Shown here: one piece after another, positions 36,738 to 53,108 of the stretch
How positions within the stretch are numbered: position 1 is the stretch's first letter
How the letters are laid out: each line of letters opens with the position of its first letter
Origin: a virus
DNA length: 64,000 nucleotides
Reading direction: 5' to 3' (one strand)
Virus record (IMG/VR): IMGVR_UViG_3300024346_000047
Coordinates: 4,405 to 68,404 of that record
The notes under the pieces: generated by a model
The model's database searches: none
What the model was told of the DNA's origin: nothing
The model's input: the letters and a program-made list of their open reading frames with translations, nothing else
Translations under genes and position numbers: made by a program

Positions 36738-36813
36738 TTTCTAACAGTATTGTAACTGCCATTCTCGTACCTCGAACGTGCGCACAAGCGCAGTTACAAG
36801 GGTGTTATAGCCA
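36738..36813. mobile_element. attC-like hairpin site A1 (73 bp identical to 42986-43058)
   Basis: ctaac-agta-ttgtaactgc...gcagttacaa-gggt-gttatag imperfect palindrome. Confidence 0.8.
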
Positions 36814-36814
36814 A

Positions 36815-37135
36815 TTAGCCTTGTTCGTAATCGCAACTTGTGAACTCATCTAAAATGGTATCATAAATAATTACATAATCAGCAGTAGTACTTCGGTTGC
36901 AACTTTCGTTTGCATCATTAAAATCGTAACCAAAAAAGAAAACTATTTTTTTAGTATCATAATCACATTCTTCAGGCATTATTTCAAAGTCCTTGTGTGC
37001 GTGTTGTTTAAATTGCAATATTCTTTCAAAGTGGTCTGCTTGTATTCTTTCTGCAATTAATATTTCTTCTTGTTCATTGTATAGGTCTAAAAATAGTTTC
37101 CCAAAATCAATGTAATTATTTATTTGTGCTTCCAT
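36815..37135 (-). CDS. Cassette-borne acidic hypothetical protein
   Basis: 106 aa; flanked by complementary boxes gttatagcca (36804) and tggctataac (37161). Confidence 0.7.
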   Translation of the reverse strand: MEAQINNYIDFGKLFLDLYNEQEEILIAERIQADHFERILQFKQHAHKDFEIMPEECDYDTKKIVFFFGYDFNDANESCNRSTTADYVIIYDTILDEFTSCDYEQG

Positions 37136-37160
37136 AATGGTCTGCGTTTATTTAAATAAC

Positions 37161-37260
37161 TGGCTATAACAACGTGTATAGTTAAAAAGCCAATTAAGGT
37201 TAGTAATTATTTTAAAGTTGGTTGCTATGGCTTTCAAACCATACACAAACCGTTATAAAT
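37161..37260. mobile_element. attC-like site A2
   Basis: taac-aac-gtgtat..aaagcca...tggcttt..atacac-aaacc-gtta. Confidence 0.8.
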
Positions 37261-37405
37261 CATTTAAAATTTGTTTAGTAGTTGGCTTTTTCTGCTTTGA
37301 ACAGTACTCCCTCTTATTACATACTGGGCACTTTTTTCCACCTTCAGCGATTTCGCAATCACAAGTAGTACACCAGTGTTGCTTGCGTTTATACTTCCCT
37401 TTCAT
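37253..37405 (-). CDS. Cassette-borne 50-aa Zn-ribbon protein (not in ORF track)
   Basis: MKGKYKRKQHWCTTCDCEIAEGGKKCPVCNKREYC...; stop TAA lies inside the TAAC box. Confidence 0.7.
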   Translation of the reverse strand: MKGKYKRKQHWCTTCDCEIAEGGKKCPVCNKREYCSKQKKPTTKQILNDL

Positions 37406-37423
37406 CTATTCAAATTTTAAACA

Positions 37424-37481
37424 ATTCATAACATCAATTTAAAAACAATTAAAACAGTTTTAACTTGTAGCATTAGCATTA
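37424..37481. mobile_element. Short degenerate attC-like site A3
   Basis: attcataac...taaaaac..gtttta...cattagcatta (GTTA box reads ATTA). Confidence 0.6.
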
Positions 37482-37484
37482 ATA

Positions 37485-37703
37485 CTAAACTTTTATTTTA
37501 AATAAATACTCTTGGGTATCATCCTTAAATATTTTCAATGTATATCCTCCTATTTTTATCTCTTTGGAAAAGTCACTCTCTTTGGATACATAAAAAGTAT
37601 CGGTAATAAGTAGGTATAAATCTTTTCCTACAAAAACTTCTGCTTTTTTCTTATACTTTATCTTGTCTAATTCTTTTACAATAGATATTAATATCTCCTT
37701 CAT
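37485..37703 (-). CDS. Cassette-borne hypothetical protein
   Basis: 72 aa; boxes attagcatta (37472) / taatgctaac (37736). Confidence 0.6.
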   Translation of the reverse strand: MKEILISIVKELDKIKYKKKAEVFVGKDLYLLITDTFYVSKESDFSKEIKIGGYTLKIFKDDTQEYLFKIKV

Positions 37704-37735
37704 TCTGTTTAGTTTTATTCATTAACAATCCGTAC

Positions 37736-37792
37736 TAATGCTAACTAGTATTAATAACAACTAACGCAGTTATTACACTTATCATTATAAAC
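37736..37792. mobile_element. Short degenerate attC-like site A4
   Basis: taatgctaac..aataac...gttatt..cattataaac. Confidence 0.6.
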
Positions 37793-37804
37793 AATTAAAT
37801 ATTA

Positions 37805-37984
37805 TTACGCTTTTCTGCATTTTGAGCAATTACATATAAACTTTCTAAATCTACCGCAACCCTTTGCGTATATATACCCTTCTTTTATTAACTCATCATA
37901 ATCCCCGTTAACCTTCCATTTTTCAAGTGTTTTAGGGTTGGTTATACGTAAAGTAACCACACAAGGCTTTTCCCATTGTTCCAT
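37805..37984 (-). CDS. 59-aa Cys-rich hypothetical protein (not in ORF track)
   Basis: MEQWEKPCVVTLRI...CNCSKCRKA. Confidence 0.55.
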   Translation of the reverse strand: MEQWEKPCVVTLRITNPKTLEKWKVNGDYDELIKEGYIYAKGCGRFRKFICNCSKCRKA

Positions 37985-37993
37985 AATATTTAA

Positions 37994-38176
37994 CTACTTA
38001 TAACAGGATATTATTTTATGAATAACAAACCCCTTCTCTGATTGTTTTTTGCGAAACTTACTATAAGCAGCCTCCTTTGTTCCTGCTTTTATCTTGTCTT
38101 TAAGCGTGTAGATTAAATACGGTACAGTTTGATTAGTTTTATCTTTAACAGATGCTTTAAATATAAATTCATACAT
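37994..38176 (-). CDS. Hypothetical protein
   Basis: 60 aa ORF. Confidence 0.5.
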   Translation of the reverse strand: MYEFIFKASVKDKTNQTVPYLIYTLKDKIKAGTKEAAYSKFRKKQSEKGFVIHKIISCYK

Positions 38177-38206
38177 ATTCTAAAAGTTTATAACACAGTA
38201 TAAAAA

Positions 38207-38452
38207 CTATTGTATTTGCTTTTTACAATCCATACATTTATTATAGTCTAATTCTATTCTTGCTCTTTCGTGTCTTAATAGTTCACAATCACATTTTATA
38301 ATATCATCTGAAACAACATTATTTTTAACGTGTTCAACAACTATATCAATCGCAACACCTATATCTCTAGGTTTTAACATTGGTTCTGAGTCTTCTCCTC
38401 TTCTCCATCTGTTGTGAGTTTCTAATATTCCGATTGCTTGTTTTATGTCCAT
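38207..38452 (-). CDS. Hypothetical protein reading through an attC-like remnant
   Basis: HNRWRRG motif common in phage small proteins; NNVVSDDIIKC is the translation of a half-site. Confidence 0.6.
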   Translation of the reverse strand: MDIKQAIGILETHNRWRRGEDSEPMLKPRDIGVAIDIVVEHVKNNVVSDDIIKCDCELLRHERARIELDYNKCMDCKKQIQ

Positions 38453-38458
38453 AATTAA

Positions 38459-39094
38459 TTACTTACCTAAAACTTGTTTATTGATAAACTCTTTTAGTTC
38501 TGATGTCGCACAATTAGTCATAAAATCTGCTAAGTCAGGATACTTACCTTCAGGATCGTAATTCTTAAGCTTACCTACAAGAGTAATCCTAGTAACACCC
38601 ATCTTTTTTAAAGACTCAGACATTTTCTTTAATCCGTCAACACTTCTATCGTCAGTTATAAAGTCTAAACTAATAGACTTTACTCCTTTCTTAGCTTTAG
38701 CTACAGTGTTAGCTCCTTTCTCTATGATTTCTTTCTTCTCTACTACTTTCTTTTTAGATTTAGCGTTAATTACTTCCTCTTCGGATGCAAAGTTATTGGT
38801 GTTAGACACTCCTAGAGATTTTAATGCTCTACCTATAGACGAGGTTTCAGCGTTTTCTAACCAACTTGTTCCGTTTATAGTACCAAAACCTTCTCGTTCA
38901 CTTGCGTGACCTGTAGCTACTGTTAAACCCTCTTGGTTTATTATTCTACACATAAAGTCTGCCTGGTATTTCTTCTCAGGGGTAAGTGTGTGAGATAATA
39001 ACTCTGTAATTATACTGTGATTTGGGTAGTCTCTTTTGAATATAATAATTCTTTCTGCTACTGTGTCGTAGTCTTTTAGTCCTTCTTTTTTCAT
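38459..39094 (-). CDS. Putative single-strand annealing protein (Sak/ERF-like)
   Basis: Y.TVAERI..F...YP, ATGHASE, ENAETSSIGRAL motifs. Confidence 0.55.
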   Translation of the reverse strand: MKKEGLKDYDTVAERIIIFKRDYPNHSIITELLSHTLTPEKKYQADFMCRIINQEGLTVATGHASEREGFGTINGTSWLENAETSSIGRALKSLGVSNTNNFASEEEVINAKSKKKVVEKKEIIEKGANTVAKAKKGVKSISLDFITDDRSVDGLKKMSESLKKMGVTRITLVGKLKNYDPEGKYPDLADFMTNCATSELKEFINKQVLGK

Positions 39095-39115
39095 TATTTA
39101 TGTTTAAATGTATTA

Positions 39116-39355
39116 TTAAAAATTATCCCAACACCAAATTGGCGTTTTATCACCAACATACGAACCGCTTACGTTATATGTAAAATGCTCCATAGAGTCT
39201 GTGTAACTCATTTCTAACATAAGAATATCTAAGCATTTAGAAACAGAGTATATTAACCTCATTTCTGTTTCGTCTACACCTATTATCGCATCGTCAAACC
39301 CATCAGCTTTTAAGAACTGTTCTTCATGGTAATGTTCGATTATATCGTTTATCAT
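39116..39355 (-). CDS. Conserved phage hypothetical protein
   Basis: ADGFDDAIIG...YNVSGSYVGDKTP motif. Confidence 0.65.
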   Translation of the reverse strand: MINDIIEHYHEEQFLKADGFDDAIIGVDETEMRLIYSVSKCLDILMLEMSYTDSMEHFTYNVSGSYVGDKTPIWCWDNF

Positions 39356-39441
39356 TTAGTTTATTTACCTTTTAAATATATAGTATACAGTATTTCTGTA
39401 ATCACCCATGTTACAAATATTAAAACAACAACATCCATAAG

Positions 39442-39579
39442 TTATATACGGTATTTTTCTTTAACTGAAATTCTTATTAATTCTGAAACTGAAACTGATT
39501 TTTTAGCAGCAATAATTTTTAGTTTATTAATAATTTCTTTTTCTACTCTGAATAAATATCTGGTATCTTTCTTAGCCAT
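39442..39579 (-). CDS. Ribbon-helix-helix (Arc/CopG-like) DNA-binding protein
   Basis: YLFRV....INKLKIIAAKKSVSVSELIR; start re-assigned to MAKK. Confidence 0.7.
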   Translation of the reverse strand: MAKKDTRYLFRVEKEIINKLKIIAAKKSVSVSELIRISVKEKYRI

Positions 39580-39937
39580 TTTGTAATTTTTTAACTTGTT
39601 CAGGAGTTGCCCTGTAAACATCTCCACTTTTTAGTTGTTTAATAAATGACCTTAAATCTAAAAGATCTTGTATTTCTAATGATGCCATTTCCGAGAATAT
39701 ATCTTGATATACTTCTTGGATTCCAACAATTAAGTTTATGTCAGATTCTTTTTTACATAACTCATCCTCTACAGGAACTACTTTTTTCTCTAAAGCTTCA
39801 AAGAATCTATTGCCATGGAATTTAATTTCTTTAGACCATAAGGCTGTGTCTTTTAAATCTTCTACGTTTTCTAGTAATATTATACCATTACACATAAAAG
39901 ATGTAGCTAACGACTTGTAATTATCTATTTTATTCAT
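39572..39937 (-). CDS. Hypothetical protein
   Basis: 121 aa ORF. Confidence 0.55.
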   Translation of the reverse strand: MNKIDNYKSLATSFMCNGIILLENVEDLKDTALWSKEIKFHGNRFFEALEKKVVPVEDELCKKESDINLIVGIQEVYQDIFSEMASLEIQDLLDLRSFIKQLKSGDVYRATPEQVKKLQNG

Positions 39938-39954
39938 TTCTTTAAAATTAAGAA

Positions 39955-40122
39955 TTAATAACTACTACCATACCTATTCATACCGCCTAAATTAGGTGAT
40001 GAAATTTTGTTTTCCATGACTGTACCGCATTTTGGACACTTCACTTCCGCTTGGTAGTTCTTTACTAATACGTCTTTTAATTCTTCTTTACATTTTGGGC
40101 ATTTTTTATCAAAAAAAGGCAT
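39955..40122 (-). CDS. FmdB-like Zn-ribbon protein, 55 aa (not in ORF track)
   Basis: MPFFDKKCPKC...VKCPKCG. Confidence 0.7.
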   Translation of the reverse strand: MPFFDKKCPKCKEELKDVLVKNYQAEVKCPKCGTVMENKISSPNLGGMNRYGSSY

Positions 40123-40125
40123 TGG

Positions 40126-40730
40126 CTATAAGTATTTAATGTTAATAATAATATCATGAGGAGCGAAATCTTTACCTCCAAAATAAGGAAATAAATTCAC
40201 CCCAAAAAGGTATTTCTTTTCTGTAGTTAACTTTATAGATGACCTCACATTTATGTTAATAGACTGTATGTGGGATACGCTTCTTTTGCCTTTCTCGTAT
40301 TCATAAAGAAATAAATCAATCTTATCAGAATAAGGATTATACTTCCAACCTATACGAGAACTGTTATAATGTATAAAAATAGAGCCGAAACCAAATAATT
40401 TATTAATTTGTTCTGACAATTGAATACCACCATTGTATCTACAGCTATCATTAAATAAAACAGAAACTTTTTGTTCTTTTTTATTTATGAAAAACTTTAA
40501 TCTATAACCCGAATAGTGATTACCTTTTTTAATTTTAAAATCTCCTGATCTTAATTTAAACATCCAAAACAAAAAAGGAGATAAAATCATTACTAATACC
40601 GCAATAGAGAAAAACAATACAAAATACCATATTGTTATTTCTTCAAGTATTTCTGACGGTTTAATATAAGACAAAATTATAAACCCCATACCTATTGCTA
40701 TTAAGGAGTATATTGCTATTGTTTTTTTCA
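40126..40730 (-). CDS. Membrane-anchored hypothetical protein
   Basis: Two N-terminal TM segments from MKKTIAIY; soluble beta domain (NKLFG...H.NS.R.GW). Confidence 0.55.
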
Positions 40731-40925
40731 TATTTATTTTTTTTAGTAAATACAAACTTAAATATAATATTTGTATTGACAAAGTGTTAATTATAATCTT
40801 CCATGTCATCTATTAGTTCATTTACTAAGATATCAAGCATAACCTCAATATTTACTGAATTAAAGCCGAATGATTCTCCATCGTAAAAAACTTCAAAAGT
40901 GACATAATTATTACCTAGTTCAAAT

Positions 40926-41270
40926 TTAGATCTTTCTTCCATTTATAGAATTTCCTTTTAATTTACGGATATTTTTGTTTACATTTTTAAGTTTTAACAA
41001 ATTATCGTCTGTTGGATTTTCTAAATGTACTGAACTATACTCTTCTAGTTTTTGTTTTAATTGTCTCATTTGCTCCTCCCTAGTTATAACGCAATTAAGA
41101 TAGTCTCTTATCGCTTTTAAAGAACCTACTCCTGATAAAGAGAACTTCTTACCAGGAATAAGTCCTCTTCTGTCATAAGACTCCCCTATTAAGAAAGTAA
41201 TTATATCGTAAGATTCGTTACAAGTTATAACTGCGTTTCCTTCTTCATCTAATATAAGTGTCCTATCCAT
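40926..41270 (-). CDS. Hypothetical protein
   Basis: 114 aa ORF. Confidence 0.5.
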   Translation of the reverse strand: MDRTLILDEEGNAVITCNESYDIITFLIGESYDRRGLIPGKKFSLSGVGSLKAIRDYLNCVITREEQMRQLKQKLEEYSSVHLENPTDDNLLKLKNVNKNIRKLKGNSINGRKI

Positions 41271-41272
41271 AG

Positions 41273-41437
41273 TTATTTATTATAAGCCTTAATATACCAC
41301 TCGCCTTTTAGTTTTCTTCTCTTAAGAACCCCCCCTTGAGCTTGTCTTTTTACTGTTGATAATTTCTTACCGAAAACTTCAGCGTAATCTTCTATAGGAT
41401 AGTAAATCCCATCTGGGAACGTAACTCTATCTAGCAT
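41273..41437 (-). CDS. 54-aa excisionase-like HTH DNA-binding protein (not in ORF track)
   Basis: YYPIEDYAEVFGKKLSTVKRQAQGGVL...KGEWYI. Confidence 0.6.
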   Translation of the reverse strand: MLDRVTFPDGIYYPIEDYAEVFGKKLSTVKRQAQGGVLKRRKLKGEWYIKAYNK

Positions 41438-42305
41438 ATTTTTGTTCTTTTCTTTTTTCTTGACTTAATGATATTTTACCATACAATTCAGGTGATAACT
41501 TCATAACCGCCACCTTTAAGCTATATACATCTAAGTATTCAAAAAACATATTATTTAGAGCAGACCATGTTACCCCTCCTTCTATAACTTTGTCTATAGT
41601 TTCTTTATCCTGATTATAAACCTTACTAGCTAAAGATGACCTGTGCCTTTTAACCATACTATACATATTAGGGTGTGATTTTTTTAATCTATACTTAAAA
41701 GAATCACAATTAGAATATTGAAAGTATTTATCATTTAAATCAGAGTATGAAAAACCTGATGATATATCATCCATCATTTCCTCTATGTTTTTATCAATTT
41801 TACTATCAAATCTTGTTTTAACTTGTTGAGATTTACTAACTATTAATACATCTTTTACTTTAATACTACTTAAATCTTCTCCTGTTATTTTTTCTTTTAT
41901 TTCTAAAAAATGATTGGTAAGCGATTTACCATTTAACATTCTAGAATCCATCATGTGTAATCCAGATACATAGCCTCTTAAATAGTGTAGGTAAGTGGTT
42001 CTATGTTTTTTAGTTAACTGTAAAGCTTTTGTAAAGTAAATAGAGTTTTTTGGGTTTTTGCTTTGATCTATAACTAAATAAAAAAACACAACCATTGGAA
42101 TTATATCTTCTGACTTTTTTGACCTTGGGATAAGAGTGTTTATTTCAAAATAATCCATTACTGAATTACTTATCAAATGTATTAATGGGTCTTGCTGAAG
42201 AGATAATATCTTTGCTTTTTTTAAATCATAACCTTGTTTTAAAAAGTTAACTATAGAGTCTAAATCTTTATCTGAGTAAATTTTTTCTTTGATTTGTTTT
42301 TTCAT
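41427..42305 (-). CDS. DNA-binding protein with DnaA domain-IV-like HTH and two C-terminal helical repeats
   Basis: SVMDYFEI...RSKK.EDII....FFYL and KHRTTYLH resemble the DnaA C-terminal domain. Confidence 0.5.
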   Translation of the reverse strand: MKKQIKEKIYSDKDLDSIVNFLKQGYDLKKAKILSLQQDPLIHLISNSVMDYFEINTLIPRSKKSEDIIPMVVFFYLVIDQSKNPKNSIYFTKALQLTKKHRTTYLHYLRGYVSGLHMMDSRMLNGKSLTNHFLEIKEKITGEDLSSIKVKDVLIVSKSQQVKTRFDSKIDKNIEEMMDDISSGFSYSDLNDKYFQYSNCDSFKYRLKKSHPNMYSMVKRHRSSLASKVYNQDKETIDKVIEGGVTWSALNNMFFEYLDVYSLKVAVMKLSPELYGKISLSQEKRKEQKYAR

Positions 42306-42946
42306 TTTGTATTGGCTAATATGTTTTCAGTTCTTACTGCTATATAATCTACTTTTTCTATTTTAATAGTGTAGATTGCTTGCTCTCTTACGGCAAATGT
42401 GTCACCTGGTGCGTATCCTTCTTTAATAAGCTGTCTAGATAAGTGCGTAGACTGTAATATATCCTCTCTCTTCTTTTGTTTTAAATGTTCGGGTATAATT
42501 ATCGTAGAACTTTGATGAATCTGCTCAACAGGCTTAAAAAGATTCCAATCAAAAGTTGGTATTATTTCTCCATCTACAATCTGACATATAATATTAGAAG
42601 TAATAGATCCAACCATATCTCTAGGATAAGAAAGGTGGTATTCATCCTCTCCAGCTAATCTATCTTCGTTAACTGCTAAGTGATGTAAGTAAACCGTACA
42701 TCCTTCTATTAATTCATCTAATGTCATACCAGCTTTGGTTGCTTTTCTACCTAAAGCTAATGGTTTTTGTATAAGTTTACCTTTAAAAGGAATATACTCA
42801 TCACCTTCAGGAATATAATCTTTATCTAATCTGTTGTAGATATTACCTAAATCTAAAGTTTTAATTCCATCTGCTGTTTTTATTTCAGTTGTAAGGTTTT
42901 GATCTTTTTTAATCTCTACCCTCATAAAGTCTTTTATGTATTTCAT
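42302..42946 (-). CDS. GroES-like co-chaperonin (extended/duplicated)
   Basis: C-terminal SSTIIIPE...PGD...IKIEKVDYIAVRTENILA. Confidence 0.6.
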   Translation of the reverse strand: MKYIKDFMRVEIKKDQNLTTEIKTADGIKTLDLGNIYNRLDKDYIPEGDEYIPFKGKLIQKPLALGRKATKAGMTLDELIEGCTVYLHHLAVNEDRLAGEDEYHLSYPRDMVGSITSNIICQIVDGEIIPTFDWNLFKPVEQIHQSSTIIIPEHLKQKKREDILQSTHLSRQLIKEGYAPGDTFAVREQAIYTIKIEKVDYIAVRTENILANTK

Positions 42947-42985
42947 TTTTTTTTATTTTATATATTTTATGGGTCTTAATTAAAT

Positions 42986-43061
42986 TTTCTAACAGTATTG
43001 TAACTGCCATTCTCGTACCTCGAACGTGCGCACAAGCGCAGTTACAAGGGTGTTATAGTTA
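42986..43061. mobile_element. attC-like hairpin site B1 (identical to A1)
   Basis: 73-bp identity with 36738-36810. Confidence 0.8.
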
Positions 43062-43062
43062 A

Positions 43063-43236
43063 TTATTCCTCTCTTTGGTAATCGTCAACTTTTAAACTTA
43101 AATCACTTCCCTTTTTAATTTGCTTTAGTATCGTTGTAATTTCATAAAGAAGCTCTTGCCCTTTATCTGTTAGCTCGTTATTCCTATTTAAAAAGCTTAA
43201 CCTTTCTTTTTCACTTTCTAATCTTTTATACTTCAT
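43063..43236 (-). CDS. Cassette-borne 57-aa protein (not in ORF track)
   Basis: MKYKRLESEKERLSFL...; within segment bounded by gttatagtta / taactataac. Confidence 0.55.
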   Translation of the reverse strand: MKYKRLESEKERLSFLNRNNELTDKGQELLYEITTILKQIKKGSDLSLKVDDYQREE

Positions 43237-43239
43237 TGT

Positions 43240-43518
43240 TTAAAGTTTATTAATCCAGTCTTTAACTGTTTTAATTAATGTATTTACAAATGGTTTTTCT
43301 GTTGGTATTCCATAATCTCGTTCTGGGTAATCCATAACATCAAGACTTAAATCATCTATTAGATTAAATATTTCATCATCTGGTATCTGTTTAAGCTTTG
43401 CTTGGTGGTATTTACACATAGCTTCCGCTATACTTGGATGGTTACGGACTAACATGCCTGTGCAATCGTAAAGTATCTGGTCTAACAGTGGCGCTTCATA
43501 AAATTCTTTATCTCTCAT
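43240..43518 (-). CDS. Cassette-borne hypothetical protein
   Basis: 92 aa ORF in the same segment. Confidence 0.6.
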   Translation of the reverse strand: MRDKEFYEAPLLDQILYDCTGMLVRNHPSIAEAMCKYHQAKLKQIPDDEIFNLIDDLSLDVMDYPERDYGIPTEKPFVNTLIKTVKDWINKL

Positions 43519-43583
43519 TTTACTTGGTTTAAATTTTATCTTATTTATAAATTATTAGTTTACTTATTCATAGTATTTTAAAC

Positions 43584-43640
43584 TAACTATAACACAAAAG
43601 TAAAAAGCAATAAACAGCTTTTACTTTACTCGTTATGTAC
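43584..43640. mobile_element. attC-like site B2
   Basis: taac-ac-aaaagtaaaaagc-aataaaca-gcttttacttt-actc-gtta. Confidence 0.8.
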
Positions 43641-44220
43641 AATGTTCACTTAAATTTTCGCATATTAAATCATTCGGCAAGAAGTCTACACAGAAATATG
43701 AACTACTAAACGTAATTTTATTGTTTGGTTTTCCGTAAGGATTATTAAACTTTATCCTTTTATCAAACATTAGTAATTGCATTTGTTTATTTGCTTCCAT
43801 AAAAACTTTTTTTGAGTAAGCGTCATTCAACCACGCATTAGTCATTATTAAAGCAAAAGGTTTATTAAAACTTAACGCTCTTTCAAAGAATTGTCGCTTC
43901 CCTTTAAATGGTGGGTTACTTACTATGCAATCCCAATCTTCTTTAGGCTCATAATCAAAAAAGTTTTGCCCAGTGCTTATATGAGAATGTATTACTTTAT
44001 TAGTCTTACTTATCATTTTAACAAATGCAGAATCAGCTTCGTCAAAAGGACACCAAACAACAAAATTACTTGGTATGTATTTTAAAATAGGCTTTACACC
44101 ATATTTAGGAGTATATGCTTCATCGTTTCCTGTTTTATTATAAAGTATTTTTTGGCTATCAATTTGTTTGTTTTGCCTCATTACGTTATTGTACATTTGT
44201 TGGGTTCTGTCTTCATTCAT
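43633..44220 (-). CDS. Cassette-borne DNA amino-methyltransferase-like protein
   Basis: DEAYTP, WCPFD, IVSNPPF motifs; stop inside TAAC box; boxes gttatgtac / gtacataac. Confidence 0.75.
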   Translation of the reverse strand: MNEDRTQQMYNNVMRQNKQIDSQKILYNKTGNDEAYTPKYGVKPILKYIPSNFVVWCPFDEADSAFVKMISKTNKVIHSHISTGQNFFDYEPKEDWDCIVSNPPFKGKRQFFERALSFNKPFALIMTNAWLNDAYSKKVFMEANKQMQLLMFDKRIKFNNPYGKPNNKITFSSSYFCVDFLPNDLICENLSEHCT

Positions 44221-44248
44221 AGTTTATTGCTTTTTAACCGTTCACACA

Positions 44249-44383
44249 GTACATAACAACATGTATAATCCATTGCTATTTTCTGCTTTTTCAAAGGCTT
44301 GTTATTATTAATTTATTTAGTTTTTAATCCGATAATTTCTGTCTGTTAAAACGCAACATATCATACACAAACCGTTAGCATTA
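44249..44383. mobile_element. attC-like site B3
   Basis: taac-aac-atgtat..ttgc...gcaa..atacac-aaacc-gttag. Confidence 0.75.
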
Positions 44384-44545
44384 ATTAGAAAACTTCACAA
44401 TATAATTTTGTTTGTAAAAAGCTAAATCTCTTGAGTGGTAAAAACCATCAAAGTGATTCATATTTCTACTTCCATCTATATTGTAAAATTTAACTATTCC
44501 TGTAAATGTTGATATTACTGCTATCGGTTTATTTTTCTTATTCAT
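44381..44545 (-). CDS. Cassette-borne hypothetical protein
   Basis: Start re-assigned to MNKKNKP; boxes gttagcatta / taatgctaac. Confidence 0.55.
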   Translation of the reverse strand: MNKKNKPIAVISTFTGIVKFYNIDGSRNMNHFDGFYHSRDLAFYKQNYIVKFSN

Positions 44546-44566
44546 ATTGTTTATTTTAAAATTAAC

Positions 44567-44705
44567 TAATGCTAACAAAGTATATAAGTAATGGCTAAAG
44601 CATACCTAAGAGCTGAACCTTCGGGTCTTTCGGGGTTACTCGTTTGTATGCGGTACTGTTAACCCTTATTCCCGCCACTACTTATATACAAACCATTATG
44701 CGTAA
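44567..44705. mobile_element. attC-like site B4
   Basis: taac-aaa-gtatataagta-atggc...gccac-tacttatatac-aaacc-atta. Confidence 0.75.
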
Positions 44706-44751
44706 CTATATTTTGCCACTAATTAGCGTTTAGTGGCTATTTATAGAATTA

Positions 44752-44967: not shown

Positions 44968-45033
44968 AACTTTTCTATTTCTTGTTTTACTTCACGCCAG
45001 TTATTACTGTATTCGTTGGTGGTAATACCTCAA

Positions 45034-45258: not shown

Positions 45259-45310
45259 TTTTATTAAATTTATTTATTATTAAATCAGCACTAACCTTAA
45301 CCGCAATACG

Positions 45311-45634
45311 TTATAAACTACTTAATAATATTCTTTCAGCTACAAACGTGCAGCCTCTTCTAAAACCTATGTACTTTCCTGATGAGAATCTTTTTTCTAA
45401 TTCTGAAGAATCTTTCTTAAACCCTTCTTCCATCCGAGCAGCTTCATCAACATCTTTTTTAGATGGTAAAAAGTTTATAACATCACCTAAAGCACTATTA
45501 TTAACTTTCTTTAGTTCTTCTTTCCAACTTTTTGCCCATAAATCAACATTTGTTATTGTGGCTTTGTTATCTGTTGAATTTTTTTCAATAGTTGAAATTA
45601 AATCCTGTAAAATTTCTTTAGCTGTCATCTTCAT
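45311..45634 (-). CDS. Chimeric ORF fused across an attC-like half-site
   Basis: 107 aa; C-terminal half bounded by gttataaact (45310) and agtttataac (45472). Confidence 0.6.
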   Translation of the reverse strand: MKMTAKEILQDLISTIEKNSTDNKATITNVDLWAKSWKEELKKVNNSALGDVINFLPSKKDVDEAARMEEGFKKDSSELEKRFSSGKYIGFRRGCTFVAERILLSSL

Positions 45635-45671
45635 CTCTTTAAATCATTAATAACATTGTTTAGTTGTAACA

Positions 45672-45968: not shown

Positions 45969-46044
45969 AATTCAAAGTTTTGTGTTATCAATTTAAGTTA
46001 GCGAGGCAACGTGTCATACAATAGCCGTTATAAGTAATAAAAAA

Positions 46045-46194
46045 CTAAAGTTGTTTAAACTTTTGACATTTTTCACATTTATATAAATCAAACCCACCGA
46101 ATCCACCTGTTTTATCTGGTTGTAACTTATAGCTATGTTTGCAAGTCTGTTGCTTGCAAATTTTCTTTATCCATAAAATTAAATCTCCTATCAT
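46045..46194 (-). CDS. Cassette-borne 49-aa Cys/His protein (not in ORF track)
   Basis: MIGDLILWIKKICKQQTCKHSY...CEKC; boxes gttataagt / acttataac. Confidence 0.65.
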   Translation of the reverse strand: MIGDLILWIKKICKQQTCKHSYKLQPDKTGGFGGFDLYKCEKCQKFKQL

Positions 46195-46209
46195 AATCCG
46201 TTTTTTAAA

Positions 46210-46266
46210 ACTTATAACATTATTTAAAAATCATTAAAACGTTTTTTACATTTAGCATTATAAAAA
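46210..46266. mobile_element. Short degenerate attC-like site
   Basis: acttataac..taaaaa...ttttta..gcattataaaa; similar to site at 37424. Confidence 0.55.
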
Positions 46267-46268
46267 GA

Positions 46269-46655
46269 CTACTGCACATTTAGGATTAAACAACCTTTAA
46301 TATCAGGAGGAGTAAAAGAATTAGGTTTAGATATTTTACCATTACTATCCTTTACTACTTTACCATTGTGTAGCTTACTCATATTAGATCGGTGTATCTC
46401 GTCCATAATACGCTCTAAGCTATCACCATCTAAACCATGTTTGTACGCTGTCCCTATAACTAAATAAAGCATATCACCGATAGCATCTGCTATTTCTATA
46501 GGGTCTTTATCTATACAAGCTAATCTGTATTCATCTATCTCCTCTTGTATCATATCAAACTCTAGTTCGTATTCGGTTATACATCCAAATGTGTCCCTTT
46601 TAGATATATTAAAACAGTTGTTAAACTCTTTTCTTTGATTAAACAACTTTTTCAT
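46269..46655 (-). CDS. All-alpha NTP pyrophosphohydrolase (MazG/PRA-PH-like)
   Basis: EEIDEY, EIADAIGD, EIHRSNMSK, GKISKP motifs. Confidence 0.85.
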   Translation of the reverse strand: MKKLFNQRKEFNNCFNISKRDTFGCITEYELEFDMIQEEIDEYRLACIDKDPIEIADAIGDMLYLVIGTAYKHGLDGDSLERIMDEIHRSNMSKLHNGKVVKDSNGKISKPNSFTPPDIKGCLILNVQ

Positions 46656-46902
46656 ACTTTTCTTTTAATTCGTTCTTAGTTAATTTTTCAATCTTTCCGC
46701 TTGGATGTATTATCTCATATACATCTCCTGATTCAATAACTTTTACAACTGAGGGTTTTGTTCTGTAGAATTGTGTTTTCATTTTTCTAAATGTGTTATG
46801 TTTATTTTTATCCATTCCTTAATACACGATTCACAACAGGTAAACTTTTTTTCAGGCTTACCACATATCTCACATTTACCAGGGAATAAGCTTAATTGTC
46901 TT

Positions 46903-47577
46903 TTATAAGAATTGTTCGTAGATTTCATCGTTGTAAATCCTATGTACTTTTGATACGTTCATCTTAACAACTCTAGCTATGGTTCTAAAGGATGTTTGAA
47001 GCTCAGAATCGTTATCCTTCATTCTGTATATTTGCTTAACTACTTCCATTTCTTTTAGATTAGGTATTAAGTCTTTATCTTTTCTTGTAAATCCGTAAGG
47101 AGTCTTACCTGAGTAAACCTTAAGGTTTTGTTTTCTGTGTTGTAATGATTTTTTTACTCTATCTCTAATTGTGTGACGCTCTAACTCTGCAAAAGCTAAC
47201 ATCATAGTCACCATCATTCTTCCTAAAGGCGTAGATGAGTCTAAAGTTTCACCTGACATATCAATCACTGAGAAATCTATATTGTTAGCGTTAAAGTCGT
47301 TTAAAACAGTTAACCCATCCACTACTGATCTAGTCATTCTGTCTAATTTGTAAACAACAATGTTATCTATTTCTTTATTGTCTAAACATTTTTTTAAGCG
47401 TGAACCTGCTGGTCTATCGAACAATCTAACACCTCCTGATACATTAGAGTCTATGAAAACATCAACTACTTCGTAACCTTTCATATTGCAATAAGTAAGG
47501 CATTTTTCAGACTGCATTAATTCTGAGTTTTCCTGATTACCAGTTGAAACTCTTATATATATAGCCGTTTTTTTCAT
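46903..47577 (-). CDS. Serine recombinase (resolvase family)
   Basis: YIRVSTGNQ catalytic Ser, DSNVSG..RP, VYKLDRMTR, FAELER, TPYGF; C-terminal HTH. Confidence 0.9.
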   Translation of the reverse strand: MKKTAIYIRVSTGNQENSELMQSEKCLTYCNMKGYEVVDVFIDSNVSGGVRLFDRPAGSRLKKCLDNKEIDNIVVYKLDRMTRSVVDGLTVLNDFNANNIDFSVIDMSGETLDSSTPLGRMMVTMMLAFAELERHTIRDRVKKSLQHRKQNLKVYSGKTPYGFTRKDKDLIPNLKEMEVVKQIYRMKDNDSELQTSFRTIARVVKMNVSKVHRIYNDEIYEQFL

Positions 47578-47645
47578 AGTTTTACTAAGTTAAATTATTT
47601 ATTTTGTATTGACAAGTTTATTTATCAAACCGACACATTAAAACG

Positions 47646-47704
47646 TGTCATAACGTTCTATAATAGCAATCCTACGGACAGCCTATTATTTCAACGTTAT
47701 AAAT
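47646..47704. mobile_element. attC-like site C1
   Basis: taacgtt-ct-ataatag...ctattat-ttc-aacgtta. Confidence 0.75.
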
Positions 47705-47873
47705 AATTAAATTTTCCAGAATGGTGCTTGAAATGATAATAAGATTCCTTAAGATATTCAACCATCTCATCGTAATTAGTATTGAAGAATATTTTATCTT
47801 CCTTATCTATATCATTTCCTAGTTGTGCATTGTGGTCTATAATCCACATTCTTTGCTTTTCGTTATCTGTCAT
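47697..47873 (-). CDS. Cassette-borne 58-aa protein (not in ORF track)
   Basis: MTDNEKQRMWIIDH...FNYL; stop inside TAAC box. Confidence 0.65.
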   Translation of the reverse strand: MTDNEKQRMWIIDHNAQLGNDIDKEDKIFFNTNYDEMVEYLKESYYHFKHHSGKFNYL

Positions 47874-47889
47874 TTTGTAAAATTTAAAA

Positions 47890-48038
47890 GTTTATAACAA
47901 TATTTAATAGCAATATTTACTTGGGGCACGGTTTATTTCCTGTCGCTTTTCTATACCGTAATTCTATGCTTAATGTACAATCCACATAGTGCAACATTCC
48001 CCCAGTAAATACAGCCTATTACATTTAACATTATATGC
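47890..48038. mobile_element. attC-like site C2
   Basis: taac..taatag..tatttact-tgggg...cccc-agtaaata..ctatta..cattatatgc. Confidence 0.75.
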
Positions 48039-48040
48039 AA

Positions 48041-48232
48041 CTATTTTTCAGTAGATTTTATAGCACTTGATAAGTGTTCAAAATTACCTCCATCGTTGTT
48101 TTCTTCACCGTTAACTTTTTCTACGGTATACAACCTATCATTATAATGGTTTTGTTCATAAACCTCTAAATCATCTCCGTTAGAGTTTTTAATACTAATT
48201 GTTCTGTACGATACGTTTTTATTCTTTCCCAT
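48041..48232 (-). CDS. Cassette-borne hypothetical protein
   Basis: 63 aa; boxes attatatgc / gcatataac. Confidence 0.6.
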   Translation of the reverse strand: MGKNKNVSYRTISIKNSNGDDLEVYEQNHYNDRLYTVEKVNGEENNDGGNFEHLSSAIKSTEK

Positions 48233-48269
48233 TGTAATTTAATTTAGTACGCTGTTAAAAGTGGTCGCA

Positions 48270-48333
48270 GCATATAACACCACCTAAAAATAATTTCGTT
48301 CCTCAACTCTTTTTAGCCAAAACGTTAAAAAGG
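48270..48333. mobile_element. attC-like site C3
   Basis: gcatataac..ctaaaaa..ttcgttcctcaa..tttttag-ccaaaac-gtta. Confidence 0.7.
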
Positions 48334-48831
48334 TTTTACAAAATCAACTAAACAGAATTAAAGCGAAGTTCAGCCAAAACGTTTATAATTTTTAATTTTG
48401 GCGTTAAAACCGTCACTAATTTATAATATAATTGGGACAAAACATTACTATAAACAGAATACTAATGTTTATAATTTATCCAAAAATATACAAAAGAAGT
48501 AAGTTTTTAATTTAACATTTAATCTAAAGTGTCATTTTTTATAATATAATCACACTTTCCTTTTTTTATTCCTTTTTTATAAGGAGTCCAATTCATATAA
48601 GAATCCCCAAAAGGTTCAGGTTTTCTAGTGTATCTTAAGCAATTAAATTTTAAGTTACAATTAACTGCTAAACACTTTGCTTCTTTTAGATTTTTCATTT
48701 TTTTTATTTTAAATGTGAGAATTTACTTTTTTGTTTAAACTTAACAAAAATTCATAGTTATATTATTTAGATTAATTCATCTATTTAACTGTTGGACAAA
48801 AATGTTAGTAGTCTAGGGTGAAACCCTACTT

Positions 48832-49752
48832 CTAAAACTTAATCCCCAAACAATACTTAGCCAAGAAAGAAGAATATCTAAGATCTAACTTAAATAAGAA
48901 CTTAGAACAGAAATCCTCTCCTCCTCCATAAATGGAATCAGATATTAATTCTCCTGTATCCTCGCTCCTTTTCAAAAAACAAACCTTGTTATACAATTTC
49001 TTGTATATGTTCCCTTTCTTATGAAATATTGTAGGGTCATCGTAAGCTCTTCTAAGCTCCGCTGCTCTCATTTCGTTACCACTGCATACTTTACCAGCTC
49101 TTTTTTGGTCAGAGATAATATTTTGCATAGATAACGACTTAAGAGTACGAGAAGCTTCCATAGCTGAACAACCCCATAATTCTGAACACTTTTCTCTTGA
49201 TGCTGTAACATCCATACTTCTTAAAAAACTCGAATGCGATTTTAATTGTTCCTCATTATTAAGAATCATGGCTTTCATGCCTCTGACTCCTAAAGATTTG
49301 AAATATTTCACCTGTTCCTTGCTTGCGTTTTTTAATACTTTGTATTCCTGAGATTTAATATGTTCTTTTAATGATTGAGATCTTAATAAATCTTTAATAG
49401 TAAAGACTTTATTAGATGCGAATTTTATTTTTTTTGGTGAATTTTCATTATAATCACACCCAACTGTTAAACAAATCTTTCTTAAAGATCTTAAATAGAT
49501 ATTATCACCTATTACATCTATCCATCCTAAAGATTTAAGAGCTTGTATTCTTCTTTTAACTGTTTTTAATGATAGTTGTGCTTCAAATGAAAAATTAAAT
49601 AGGTCATAATCTTTTATACAACCACTTTTTTCTAAAGTCTTAAGATAACCATAGAACTCAAATTCTTTCACCTTCTTACTCGTTAGGATAGCATTTGCTA
49701 AACCAGGAGTTAAAGTTATTTGTGTATGTGATAGAAATTTGTTATTTTGCAC
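48832..49752 (-). CDS. Putative replication initiator / winged-helix DNA-binding protein
   Basis: Two HTH-like segments (LSLKTVKRRIQALKSLGWI; SAMEASRTLKSL); GTG start. Confidence 0.45.
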   Translation of the reverse strand: MQNNKFLSHTQITLTPGLANAILTSKKVKEFEFYGYLKTLEKSGCIKDYDLFNFSFEAQLSLKTVKRRIQALKSLGWIDVIGDNIYLRSLRKICLTVGCDYNENSPKKIKFASNKVFTIKDLLRSQSLKEHIKSQEYKVLKNASKEQVKYFKSLGVRGMKAMILNNEEQLKSHSSFLRSMDVTASREKCSELWGCSAMEASRTLKSLSMQNIISDQKRAGKVCSGNEMRAAELRRAYDDPTIFHKKGNIYKKLYNKVCFLKRSEDTGELISDSIYGGGEDFCSKFLFKLDLRYSSFLAKYCLGIKF

Positions 49753-49786
49753 CTGTATTTAATTTAAGCGATTACAATATACGAAA

Positions 49787-49832
49787 AAATCCCTAACCTT
49801 CAAACTTAATTCTTAAGTGGTTAGGGATTTTT
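49787..49832. terminator. Stem-loop terminator
   Basis: aaaatccctaacc...ggttagggatttt. Confidence 0.7.
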
Positions 49833-49836
49833 ATTT

Positions 49837-52588
49837 CTACCCCCTATTAATTACCTTATCATCGCACATTTCAACGCTAAATTCACATTGAAACACTCTA
49901 CCAAGGTTAGTTAGTCTAGAATCACCGTTAGGATTAAACTCTTTCAGCTCTCTACTAAGTTTAGGAATTTTTAATAATCCTAAGTGTGTGAAGTGATATG
50001 TTTTTACAGTATGCATCATGATTCTAATTCTTCAATTTCAGCCTTTAATCTTTTAAGCCGTTCAAGTTTTAATTTCTTTTTCTCTTCAACAACTAACGGG
50101 TTAATTAAACCCCAGATCTTTGTTACTTCTTCTTCGTTGTTAAACGTTAAGTACTTACCAAGTAAATCACCAATATTATCAACTTTTAAGCTCCATTTTT
50201 CATTAGCTATCCAAAGATCAAGAATATGCTTATCTATTTCCACAGTAGCTCTAAACTCATCAGCCTTAATAAATTTAAAGTCCCCTTCTAGTAGTTTTCC
50301 TTTAAAGTACTCTGCTACTTCTTTTATTTTTTTTTCCATATTATAAGTGTGTGATTATCTGTGTTTTAAACATTTAGTAACTCCAGAAGAGTTGAAGTAA
50401 ATTTCTTCAGCTTTATGTATATCCTCTCTAAAACTATCCCTCCCTGGTCTAGTTTTAAAATCCCATACGTTAATATCTAAATATCTTTTATTTTCAGCAG
50501 CAGGAAGCAAATCCCTCCTTGTTAAGTGTATTATTTTCTTCATGGCTTATTGGTTTTAAAAGGCTGAGGAATATCAGGAATCCTAGTCCATTCAGCGTAG
50601 TTTCTATTAGCTATTTCCCATATAGTACCGTCATTACATAAAGCGGTAGTTATGTATTCACATTGTGTTGTTAACGATTCATCTACCCTTATGGTGGATA
50701 TCTGTATTACTTGTCTTATGTTTTCCATATTCTAAATGTGTTATGGTTAAGAGAATATTTTTATTATAAGAAATACAAAAAGCATAAAGTAAACACAACC
50801 ATGAAATACAGTTCTGTTAAATGCTTTAATTCTTTCTATTTGTATTTTATCTTGCAGAGTTCCGATAGCTTCTTCTTTACTTTCTAGTAAGTCTGCTGCT
50901 TTCTTACCTACATCTATAGCTTTTTGGGAAGTATCGTTTGAATCTTTAAGTAAGTCTTGTAAGTCGCTGTTAAATTCCTTTTCAGTTTTTAAATCGTGAC
51001 TTAAACCTAAGTATTTTAAATTTAAAGTTTCAAGTTTTTCTTTAAGTTGTCTTATGGTTTCTTGAGAGTTCATTAGCTTAGTGTTTTATGGTTAAATATT
51101 AATTGTTCTAATCTTTCTATGTTTAATTTAAGCTCACTAATTGTTTTAGTTTTAATGGCAAGATTACTGTTTTCAAATATTTTTCTTGCGGTAGTTTTTA
51201 TTTTTAAACTTTGTATCTCTATTAAAGATTTTGATTCCTCTGTAGTTATTATCATCTTTTGTTTTTTACCATTATTAGTATTAATATAATTTAATTGGTA
51301 TCAGAAGCAGTATCATGGTTTTAGTATAAATTCCGAAAGCTTACACATTTTGTCTTTCATCACTTTGTATTGTGTAGAGTCATCTATATATTCGCATTGA
51401 AAGCTATTAATATTAAGAACACCTTGTTCTGTAATTTCAGCACAACAACTGGAGTTATCTGTATCTATAGATATTGCATTGTTATCCCATACTCTAATTC
51501 TATAATCTTCTTTAATCATATTTTTATCTTTTAGGTAAAATTAGCAATATATAACATGATGTCCATGTAATAATTGGAATAAATGGATTCTCAAAGTACC
51601 AACCAAAAGGTATGGCTGCAAAACATATCCAAAAAAACATTTTGCAAAATATATTTATAACTGTATTCATATTACATTTCTAATAAACCGAATCCAAAAT
51701 TAACTTCAAATTTAAACCTTTCACATTTAAAAGGAATACTATTTGGAGCTTTAAATCCAAAATGTAGAGTAATAATTTCTCCGTCCATAATATAAGCATA
51801 CCCTTTACCTGAATAGTATTTTTCAGGAGTTCCACCAGGAAGGCTAAATGCTGACCCATGTAGATCAGTTATCGGGTTAATTGTAAAGTATTCAACTTGC
51901 TCTGATCTTTCTGCAAGCTGCCATTCTGTTGCTTTGTCAAGCTGTTTAATCCAGCCTTCAGTTAAACTTTTCATTCTACGTTTAGCGTCACTATAATTTT
52001 TAGAGGACACAAGCACAGGGTTAACAGAGAACACACCCTTAGAACGTATTAAAATGCCTTGTTGATACATATTATTAGTATCAGATTCTATATCAAAATA
52101 GTCTTGTGTTAAATTTTTAACTGTATTTCCTCTTAAGTAGTATTGAAATGTATTTTCCATGATTGAATTATTTAATTGTTTAATTTATTATTCTGTTTCA
52201 ATGCAAGCGAATGAAACGCTTGCTAATATTAATAGTGACACAATTACCCAAGTAGAAATCTTTATGTTAATCATTAAAGGAAGAACATGAAAGATAAATA
52301 TTAAAGTAGGTAAGAAGAGCCAAAACATTATTTTTTTCATAATTATGTAAGATTTAAAAGTTTTTCTTCATCAGTATAATAAGAGAACATTTCCATCCAA
52401 GTATCAGACACATTACTATAAATTAAAAAATTAACCTGAACCATAGCATCAGGATTAATTGAGGATATTAAATCCCCTATTTCTTTTATTTTATATTTAG
52501 CAACTGCATCTCCGTATTCAACGTCAATTGTTGTTCTTACTGATTTTTTACCACTTTCTTTTACTCTGATTTCTATTGATTTTTGCAT
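49837..52588 (-). CDS. Cluster of small hypothetical ORFs (49837, 50016, 50355, 50540, 50747, 51073, 51313, 51672, 52343)
   Basis: Tightly packed co-oriented 60-162 aa ORFs; 50747..51073 has coiled coil plus C-terminal TM. Confidence 0.55.
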
Positions 52589-52633
52589 GATTTTACACCT
52601 ATTTCTAGGATTTTATTTAGGGTTTAATAAAAA

Positions 52634-52702
52634 GCATATAACGCTACCTATATGCAAAACTCCTTTACTCTACGTTCAGCACATAGCCAAACCGTTATAT
52701 GC
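52634..52702. mobile_element. attC-like site D1
   Basis: gcatataac..ctatatgc...gcacatag-ccaaacc-gttatatgc. Confidence 0.8.
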
Positions 52703-52704
52703 AA

Positions 52705-53013
52705 TTAAAGACTCTTGTTCAACTCTAATAATTCAACACAAGTTTCTTCATAATCAGGAGAGTCAATTCCGATATAATAATTTGTTGAATTTGAAGTTAA
52801 AATATACTCATCAGTCCAACTCATAAGTTCTTTTAAATCTTGTTTCATCAATTCTTTATTTCTACTCGCTTGGCTAATCCATCCAATTAATTCATTAATA
52901 AAAGATTCTCTGTGAATTATTGAAAATTCGTGTAATTCTTCATCTCTTATCTTATCATTAAGTTTAGTGCCATTAATCCTATCTTCTGTCAATATAAATT
53001 TCTGCTTTTCCAT
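52705..53013 (-). CDS. Cassette-borne hypothetical protein
   Basis: 102 aa between two related attC-like sites. Confidence 0.7.
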   Translation of the reverse strand: MEKQKFILTEDRINGTKLNDKIRDEELHEFSIIHRESFINELIGWISQASRNKELMKQDLKELMSWTDEYILTSNSTNYYIGIDSPDYEETCVELLELNKSL

Positions 53014-53043
53014 TTTAATTTATTTTTAATCTATTAATAAAAA

Positions 53044-53108
53044 GCATATAACACTAGCTATATGCCATACTCGTTCCTCGTTCAGCACATAGCCAAACCG
53101 TTAGTAAA
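53044..53108. mobile_element. attC-like site D2
   Basis: gcatataac..gctatatgc...gcacatagc-caaacc-gttag; shares 19-bp and 25-bp blocks with D1. Confidence 0.8.

Follow-up and report, generated by a model that had tools for sequence, protein, structure and literature searches.

Hairpin-delimited gene cassettes with complementary ends in a 68-kb marine phage: a possible integron-type exchange system

The gain and loss of small accessory genes by lytic phages, such as counter-defence methyltransferases, is mostly ascribed to untargeted recombination. A 64,000 nt stretch of viral DNA (bases 4405–68404 of the 68,404 bp IMG/VR record IMGVR_UViG_3300024346_000047; hereafter, the window) raises the question of whether such genes may also move as site-specific units, as four clusters of small genes in it are punctuated by hairpins with TAAC and GTTA at their feet. 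With modest confidence, we read the four clusters as mobile cassette arrays of the integron type, carried by a lytic phage of marine Bacteroidota and dependent on an enzyme supplied in trans that would act on folded sites of the gene-sense strand. The 68,404 bp record is graded complete by CheckV, and the G+C content of the window is about 30%. Structural genes occupy the plus strand, while the minus strand carries, from about 30 to 59 kb, the replication genes together with small early and middle genes. With about 30% identity of the primase-polymerase to its homologues in Cellulophaga podophages phi38:1 and phi40:1, a host among the marine Bacteroidota is probable. The window stretch is present in marine metagenome runs (runs with small shares were left out for habitat).

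Each unit opens and closes with a short box, and a preliminary description of the window, made from the sequence alone, had proposed 12 pairs in which the closing box is the reverse complement of the opening one. All 12 were recovered in place, eight as perfect reverse complements and four with one mismatch. With the boxes anchored at the hairpin feet and true partners compared with all non-partners, 63 of 72 variable positions (box positions 5–10) match in true partners, the mean for non-partners being 2.6 of 6, and none of 100,000 permutations reached 63 matches. The box observation is thereby confirmed as real and far above chance. The case rests on these anchored tests and not on an unanchored count of inverted 9-mers, which is less striking (nine GTTA-led pairs in the window at a spacing of 60–900 nt, seven of them in the cassette region). 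The boxes are longer than the 8–10 nt first assigned to them, extending over about 14 nt in the form NTTA, 6 nt, NTTA; positions 12–14 match in 10–11 of the 12 pairs, and position 11 is never a Watson–Crick match. Stop codons, said to fall inside the box in six open reading frames (ORFs), do so in five of the 12 first ORFs if the box is taken as 8–10 nt, and in nine if it is taken as 14 nt. The two boxes around one hairpin match each other at only 0–3 of 6 positions in all six hairpins tested, as had been claimed, so the complementarity is offset by one gene. A cassette begins with a sequence complementary to the inner end of the site that belongs to it, as in the attC sites of integrons and in clusters of attC sites lacking an integrase (CALINs).

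The unit so defined begins, on the plus strand, with the TT of one GTT, ends with the G of the following one, and contains an opening box, one or two small minus-strand genes, a short 5′ leader, a closing box and one hairpin. All cassette genes are on the minus strand, and the linked hairpin is at the plus-strand 3′ end of the cassette. The cargo includes a single methyltransferase-like gene, and all other cargo genes are without a named family. Thirteen hairpins, 46–139 nt in length and picked for a TAAC left foot and a G/ATTA right foot, were folded; several of the approximately 19 palindromes or remnants counted in the preliminary description have only one arm. Like attC, the sites are imperfect palindromes whose feet are AAC on one side and GTT on the other. 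A generic finder of TAAC…NTTA hairpins was too permissive, making many calls within coding regions, and was dropped.

If these are exchange units, related genomes should diverge at their edges. Among viral contigs, no relatives were found with the primase protein alone as query or with protein alignment A1, a 21-nt piece of hairpin A gave 0 matches, and a megablast search of the phage collection matched nothing except a 56-nt stretch that is considered below. Five metagenome loci were collected via protein alignment and compared with the window by BLAST and by reading of the junctions (L numbers designate individual loci). Data from sequencing runs were contigs, and joints with a short side of about 20 nt, which are unreliable, were left out. 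Locus L003 follows the window through hairpin A (36742–36807, minus strand; the low-coordinate boundary of cluster 1) as far as the GTTATA of its right foot, then has about 1.5 kb of different cassettes, and resumes homology with the window precisely at 37785, the base directly after the A of an ATTA foot. Homology between the two thus breaks at 36809 and 37785, and the hairpins to the left of 37785 are unrelated in L003 and the window. Both L001 and L003 part from the window right after hairpin A′ (42990–43055, minus strand), the second copy of hairpin A and the boundary of cluster 2, with the break at 43055–43063; the right flank of hairpin A accordingly varies after GTTATA(G) between the two copies in the window, L003 and L001. 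In L004, the neighbours change at the box at 38186–38194. New complementary box pairs are present in the relatives, four in L003 and three in L001, and in one of the L001 pairs the fourth core base is altered on both sides (GTTG with CAAC), i.e., the change is compensated. Boundaries at G|TT, as in attC arrays, were read between the window and L001, L003, L011, L084 and L036, and between L001 and L036, while some indels do not obey this rule. The expectation that breakpoints in relatives would fall at G/TTA holds for these cassette joins and fails for several indel ends that are away from boxes. Breaks were also seen at junctions without a hairpin and at boxes within ORFs.

Repeated stem-loops might also be shuffled, and mini-circles formed, by homologous recombination between repeat copies, as for the promoter early stem-loop (PeSL) elements of T4-type phages, in which a terminator and a promoter are combined. 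The present hairpins are likewise repeated intergenic stem-loops among small, non-essential genes in variable regions, hairpins A and A′ are identical copies, and mini-circles are reported for PeSLs in PMC2839356. The exchanges described above take place at the edge of the hairpin and not within it, as is clear from the unrelated hairpins at 37785, and boxes pairing across a gene are not a product of homologous exchange. Nor was a strong sigma-70 promoter found joined to a terminator stem-loop: sigma-70-like sites are at the chance level (90 against 96.6 expected) in a scan that leaves out Bacteroidota promoter types, and only one terminator-like site on the minus strand, where the genes lie, coincides with a hairpin. 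We therefore consider a PeSL-like origin quite unlikely. The preliminary description had named purely terminator-like behaviour as an outcome that would speak against cassettes; with that single coincidence, the hairpins do not resemble intrinsic terminators.

Two further differences were seen between the window and its relatives. Window positions 39108–39371, which include a gene at 39116–39355, are replaced by 23 nt in L003, and no boxes were seen there. Between window positions 38451 and 38466, L002 has an insertion of about 330 nt (approximately 4030–4357 of that locus) with a tRNA-like gene, for which ARAGORN gives a four-letter anticodon.

The same sites occur well beyond the close relatives, and whole hairpins are common to the window and many otherwise unrelated contigs. 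The 16-nt arm of hairpin H2 (37167–37255) has exact matches in 94 IMG/VR stretches, part of them likely due to chance. In the unrelated contig L011, H2 with its box and 5′ leader is 95.6% identical over 114 nt; for the region of H47 (47651–47699), identity is 100% (67 nt) in L084 and 95% in L036; and H8 (44254–44377), H53 (53049–53103) and the hairpin at 46215–46261 are 87, 89 and 90% identical in L078, L027 and L096, respectively. Homology to L011 and L024 extends leftward via the closing box and the 5′ leader to a few bases from the start codon, and its right end is GTTATA. At H2, H47 and A, the left flank is kept and the sequence changes directly after GTT. Contig L011 carries an array of its own with complementary boxes, and L001 and L036 have in common one cassette (96% identical over 236 nt) that starts with CGTT, ends with CGTT and has unlike flanks.

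The pairing rule could also be examined at 64 sites anchored by 16-mers in uncultured viral contigs. On the predicted side, within 1.5 kb, a perfect partner box is present at 14 sites and one with at most one mismatch at 33, compared with 1 and 4 of 51, respectively, on the other side; when boxes were swapped among loci, 0.6% were perfect and 4.4% had at most one mismatch. Isolated shared segments have 26 of 72 boundaries within 7 nt of GTTA/TAAC, against a background of 12.75% (p = 4e-7). Among cultured phages, Polaribacter phage P12002L has these hairpins in its gene gaps, and gp35, gp53 and gp54 are each spanned by boxes that pair; hairpins and boxes of this kind surround the methyltransferase genes of that phage. 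Cellulophaga phage Nekkels_1 has a homologue of the first cassette gene without surrounding boxes or hairpins, so this gene also exists outside cassettes. Beside that homologue, an unannotated gap (2190–2350 of locus L101) contains a tRNA-like T-arm sequence, and ARAGORN calls no tRNA in it. The sharing of cassettes and hairpins by otherwise unrelated phages suggests a dedicated route for gene swapping.

Which strand, and which nucleic acid, the hairpins act in can be approached from their folds. The gene-sense (minus) strand folds better in 12 of 13 hairpins, by a mean of 3.8 kcal/mol, and with DNA parameters it is the better strand in five of five. Across the 13 hairpins there are 39 G-U pairs on the sense strand and 11 on the other, and wobbles in the box stems show the same bias (13 vs. 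1 in the window, 32 vs. 2 at other loci). Because stems and boxes both pair better on the gene-sense strand by way of G-U/G-T wobbles, it is the folded, single sense strand that is under selection. An alignment of the H2 family (13 sequences) has 21 pairs, five of them with compensatory changes and six mostly G-U; the invariant 5′ arm is an artefact, since the search word came from that arm. Hairpins A, H2, H7 (43590–43635), H47, H52 (52639–52697) and H53 show, from folds or by eye, a basal and a second stem parted by a small internal loop, and a tip that varies, while H3 (37429–37475) and H46 (46215–46261) barely fold. Read on the sense strand, the junction lies at the 5′ hairpin foot, between AA and C (AA|C). 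With the better-folding strand cut at this point, the geometry is that of an attC bottom strand. The genes share the strand equivalent to the attC bottom strand, and each site therefore precedes its gene, the opposite of attC arrays, where the gene is upstream of the site on the top strand.

These folds are also what brings in the main rival explanation, a function in RNA. The hairpins and the 10–14 bp stems formed by the boxes might serve in polycistronic early or middle mRNA, each gene's message being closed by such a stem beside a structured hairpin, for processing (e.g., by RNase III) or protection from exonucleases, the modules being swapped by illegitimate or microhomology recombination and the pairing kept by selection. 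The pairing favours the sense strand and contains many G-U pairs, the hairpins are far more stable as RNA than as DNA (most reach −10 to −39 kcal/mol as RNA), hairpin and 5′ leader of the following gene are linked, and most carrier phages encode no recombinase; a shared leader, hairpin and boxes are moreover combined with different ORFs. A separate process would then be needed for the fixed-base junctions and for the cassette that runs from GTT to GTT in unrelated contigs, and microhomology of 4–6 nt is a weak guide for such precision; breaks fall also at hairpin-less junctions and at boxes inside ORFs. The hairpins are not like intrinsic terminators, and Rfam gave no match at gathering thresholds in the whole window, nor at E ≤ 1 between 36600 and 53300. 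In addition, PMC9892861 describes recombination of a P12002L site as DNA by IntI1, although that site is not confirmed as one of the hairpins described here. We regard an RNA function as the sole basis of these features as possible but somewhat unlikely; the transcribed hairpins may also act in mRNA, quite possibly alongside a role in cassettes.

Under the favoured integron-type reading, the free form of a cassette would be a circle in which both boxes extend the hairpin into a basal stem of 10–14 bp. On the gene-sense strand, the hairpin would fold into two stems with a small internal loop between them, the basal one ending in AAC/GTT and the other one capped by a variable tip, and a recombinase acting on this folded single strand would cut AA|C at the 5′ foot and join it to the same position elsewhere. 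A cut at that point would split the basal stem across the cassette, and this would be why the opening box pairs with the closing box. We infer the circle, the single-stranded DNA substrate and the type of enzyme from the arrangement of the sites. The enzyme would not be encoded by most carriers, and its likeliest source would be a tyrosine recombinase, of integron or Xer type, from the host or a co-resident element.

The genome itself bears on this last point. The preliminary description had found no integrase in view, and a tyrosine recombinase is indeed absent: PF00589 has no match at E ≤ 1 in the 68,404 bp genome (the same search works in 14 of 14 control genomes), and no intI gene is present as there would be in a complete integron. 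A small serine recombinase of 224 aa is, on the other hand, encoded on the minus strand at 46903–47577 (PF00239, Resolvase, E 8.2e-35, residues 5–151; phrog_95 and phrog_125), so that the claim holds for tyrosine recombinases and is wrong in that the phage does have a recombinase of the serine type. Movement of the cassettes by this protein would be attractive in that its Resolvase domain is complete and its gene is located between clusters 2 and 3. A Resolvase match is found in 0 of 28 other viral records carrying the hairpins, and the gene is not flanked by complementary boxes, on which grounds it was rejected as the enzyme of the system; serine recombinases also use double-stranded sites, which leaves the strand-biased wobble pairing unexplained. 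Of the readings considered here it is the least probable.

Single-strand transposition of the IS200/IS605 or REP/RAYT kind, with the hairpins as ends or relics moved by a Y1 HUH enzyme, would account for strand-specific, intergenic hairpins with a conserved 4-nt foot that are scattered over many genomes. The Y1 HUH transposase profile PF01797 has no match in the phage genome, there is one hairpin per unit and not two different ends, and boxes pairing across the gene are not predicted by such a mechanism, making it very improbable.

An enzyme acting in trans, as the integron-type reading supposes, is conceivable, since TIGR02249 (integron integrase) scores above its curated cut-off in 113 of 401 genomes sampled from the phylum of the Bacteroidota carrier G029, and in 0 of 14 controls. 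In Roseivirga spongicola and in viral records G024 and G027, tyrosine recombinases of 267–269 aa are directly downstream of arrays and in the same orientation (L106, 15697–16506, minus strand; L107, 3638–4441), with 38% identity between the two groups. The Roseivirga spongicola gene and array sit at a contig end. This recombinase is a lead and not a finding.

Several observations weigh against an integron-type system with a borrowed tyrosine recombinase, and they are gathered here. Regarding the junctions, L001 is without 36713–38457, hairpin A included, and neither end of this gap is at a box. A relative in run X7 is without 52625–53885, where the gap starts about 10 nt ahead of a box, and without 50332–50720, a gap between plain direct repeats. 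Among isolated shared segments, 46 of 72 boundaries are away from the motif, and GTT is present at both ends in only 1 of 13, in a crude test with fuzzy BLAST ends that misses the ATT and CAAC variants. Contig L011 and the window share a hairpin, both boxes and the leader, yet their ORFs differ, and cassette transfer by itself does not account for the same site with different ORFs. In bacteria the sites are scarce, with the strict H2 pattern in only three stretches, all Bacteroidota, among the genomes of 185,579 species. Regarding the structure, the genes occupy the counterpart of the attC bottom strand, opposite to what is found in canonical cassettes; five sense-strand hairpins are weak as DNA (−3.7 to −14.4 kcal/mol, z −1.6 to −3.9); and G-U pairs make up as many as 6 of 21, which suits RNA better than DNA. 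Regarding the enzyme, the phage genome itself is without a tyrosine recombinase, and so are most carriers, one being found in 3 of 28 other carrier records and in none of the three whose completeness is 90% or more. The inspected IntI-bearing genomes have 47–62% G+C and are not obviously the host lineage, and with such values the top Bacteroidota IntI genomes say little about the actual host lineage. The original proposal of integron-like cassettes is thus upheld in its discrete segments and its G|TT joins at one fixed hairpin end, and has to be qualified in that the orientation is reversed and the resident recombinase is of the serine type.

A more novel reading would be that the phages have an exchange system of their own and not a borrowed integron. 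A family of sense-strand hairpins upstream of genes would then allow lytic Bacteroidota phages to trade single genes via circles whose closure is templated by the 14-nt split stem. In place of a classical integron integrase there would be a recombinase of a new family, or else a step that seals nicks or works at the RNA level on the transcribed hairpins. We think this unlikely.

Cluster 1 begins after hairpin A, and its four cassettes are all on the minus strand. Cassette 1 (36805–37252) has an ORF at 36815–37135, a closing box at 37161–37170 and hairpin H2. Cassette 2 (37253–37472) has an ORF at 37253–37405, a closing box at 37424–37432 with one mismatch, and the weak hairpin H3, which folds at merely about −2 kcal/mol. 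Cassette 3 (37473–37784) consists of an ORF at 37485–37703, a closing box at 37736–37745 and hairpin H4 (37742–37787). Cassette 4 (37785–38198) contains two ORFs (37805–37984 and 37994–38176) and the closing box at 38186–38194, where L004 departs from the window; its hairpin is a stub, and a full hairpin is found at the corresponding place in L004.

Cluster 2, also on the minus strand, starts at hairpin A′ with cassette 5 (43053–43632), which has ORFs at 43063–43236 and 43240–43518, a closing box at 43584–43593 and hairpin H7; an H7-like hairpin stands between different genes in L003. The DNA methyltransferase-like ORF (43633–44220; phrog_799, E 1.1e-32) is in cassette 6 (43633–44374), with a closing box at 44249–44257 and hairpin H8. 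Cassette 7 (44375–44695) has an ORF at 44381–44545, a closing box at 44567–44576 and the long hairpin H9 (44573–44695), from which hairpin H10 (44704–44751, minus strand; 83–89% identical in L028 and L020) is not separated by a gene. The box-bounded segment at 45310–45481 (minus strand) is the 3′ part of ORF 45311–45634; in L036, the 5′ part of the ORF is homologous but continues, past a break at TAAC, into another box-bounded 3′ part. The last unit of the cluster, at 46028–46261 (minus strand), has an ORF at 46045–46194, a closing box at 46210–46218 and the weak hairpin H46.

In cluster 3, hairpin H47 and its linked left flank (47632–47699, minus strand) form a region in which homology ends at GTT. 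It is followed on the same strand by a cassette at 47697–48033 (ORF 47697–47873, closing box 47891–47898, hairpin H48 at 47895–48033) and by another at 48031–48331 (ORF 48041–48232, closing box 48270–48278), in which a hairpin or remnant starts at 48275 and for which a similar hairpin is present in L004. Cluster 4 consists of hairpin H52 with its closing-type box at 52634–52642 (together 52634–52697, minus strand) and one cassette at 52695–53103 (minus strand), with an ORF at 52705–53013, a closing box at 53044–53052 and hairpin H53.

Other repeated elements are found in and around the arrays. Within the loop of H9, 56 nt (44619–44674) match, at 82–94% identity, intergenic DNA without annotation in Klebsiella, Erwinia, Proteus and Rhizobium phages; in phage RaK2, the stretch is about 45 nt from a tRNA-Gly gene within a tRNA cluster. 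It has no Rfam match and may represent an undescribed small phage RNA. Direct repeats are located at two gene starts, 50316–50355 and 50705–50744, and the X7 relative is without the intervening 389 nt. The loss of this gene, at 50332–50720, is by plain repeat recombination and unrelated to the hairpins. Between 52570 and 56634 there are six copies of a conserved leader of about 30–40 nt (family D1), which has a CCTA/TAGG mini-hairpin and ends just ahead of early-gene start codons. The D1 leaders are a second, different modular punctuation. From 53803 to 58338, a motif of the TGCACATTTAG type is repeated at the ends or starts of early-arm genes, at times as a dyad beside a G-run (families D4–D8).

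For the accessory genes of lytic phages, the arrays are of interest because the exchange unit, the junction base and the recognition structure can all be read here from the sequence, providing a rule by which such genes can be located in phage genomes. Dozens of contigs from uncultured marine phages have the same sites, and so does a Polaribacter phage in culture, which makes the system accessible to bench tests. The sites also broaden the report of 2023, on a few attC sites of virulent phages, to a family that is widespread and distinct in structure.

That report (Qi et al. 2023, PMC9892861), as far as its available text goes, describes integrase-less attC clusters in virulent phages, among them P12002L with methyltransferase cassettes. 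Two attC sites are reported there for P12002L, and P12002L_attC2 was recombined with attI1 by IntI1, this site not being confirmed as one of the hairpins described here. Split boxes, or a spread of the sites among phages, were not found in that text, and in a literature search of limited scope no further account of the system in phages of flavobacteria came up. As in the phage CALINs, the cargo includes methyltransferases and the arrays are without an integrase in lytic phages, and P12002L carries the present system.

The likeness to integron attC sites extends to imperfect palindromes of approximately 46–139 nt with AAC and GTT feet, what look in six of the hairpins like two stems with a small internal loop between them and a variable tip, cassette junctions at G|TT, and a cassette start that pairs with the near end of its own site. 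Unlike integron cassettes, the genes here are on the strand equivalent to the attC bottom strand, with the site upstream of the gene; the split stem measures 10–14 nt, against some 7 nt in integrons; G-U/G-T pairing strongly favours the sense strand; and several arrays alternate with core phage genes, certain ORFs reading through sites. In contrast to a complete integron, neither attI nor intI is present.

In phages of the CTX type, the folded single strand of attP mimics a recombinase core site, host XerCD acts on it, one strand is exchanged and replication resolves the junction. A folded single-strand site and a host-supplied recombinase would be common to that system and to the favoured reading of the present one, and many closing boxes here end in CATAA, which may be read as resembling an Xer arm. 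With CTX-type attP, however, the whole single-stranded phage integrates at dif, and there are no cassette arrays in a double-stranded lytic phage.

In the pdif modules of Acinetobacter plasmids, genes are flanked by inversely oriented recombination half-sites, 28-bp double-stranded Xer sites. As in the present cassettes, the two ends of a pdif module are inverted repeats, but pdif sites form no hairpin and have conserved arms, whereas the boxes here are variable and co-vary.

The nearest phage analogue is the PeSL of T4-type phages, described in Arbiol et al. 2010 (PMC2839356) and Comeau et al. 2014 (PMC4122927) as promoter and terminator repeats that recombine by homology. PeSLs, too, are repeated stem-loops among small accessory genes in variable regions, the indels of close relatives end at them, and they are proposed to produce small circles. 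The features of the present system do not fit a PeSL as characterised in those texts: there is no promoter or terminator signature, exchange takes place at a fixed base of the hairpin foot, and the boxes pair across the gene.

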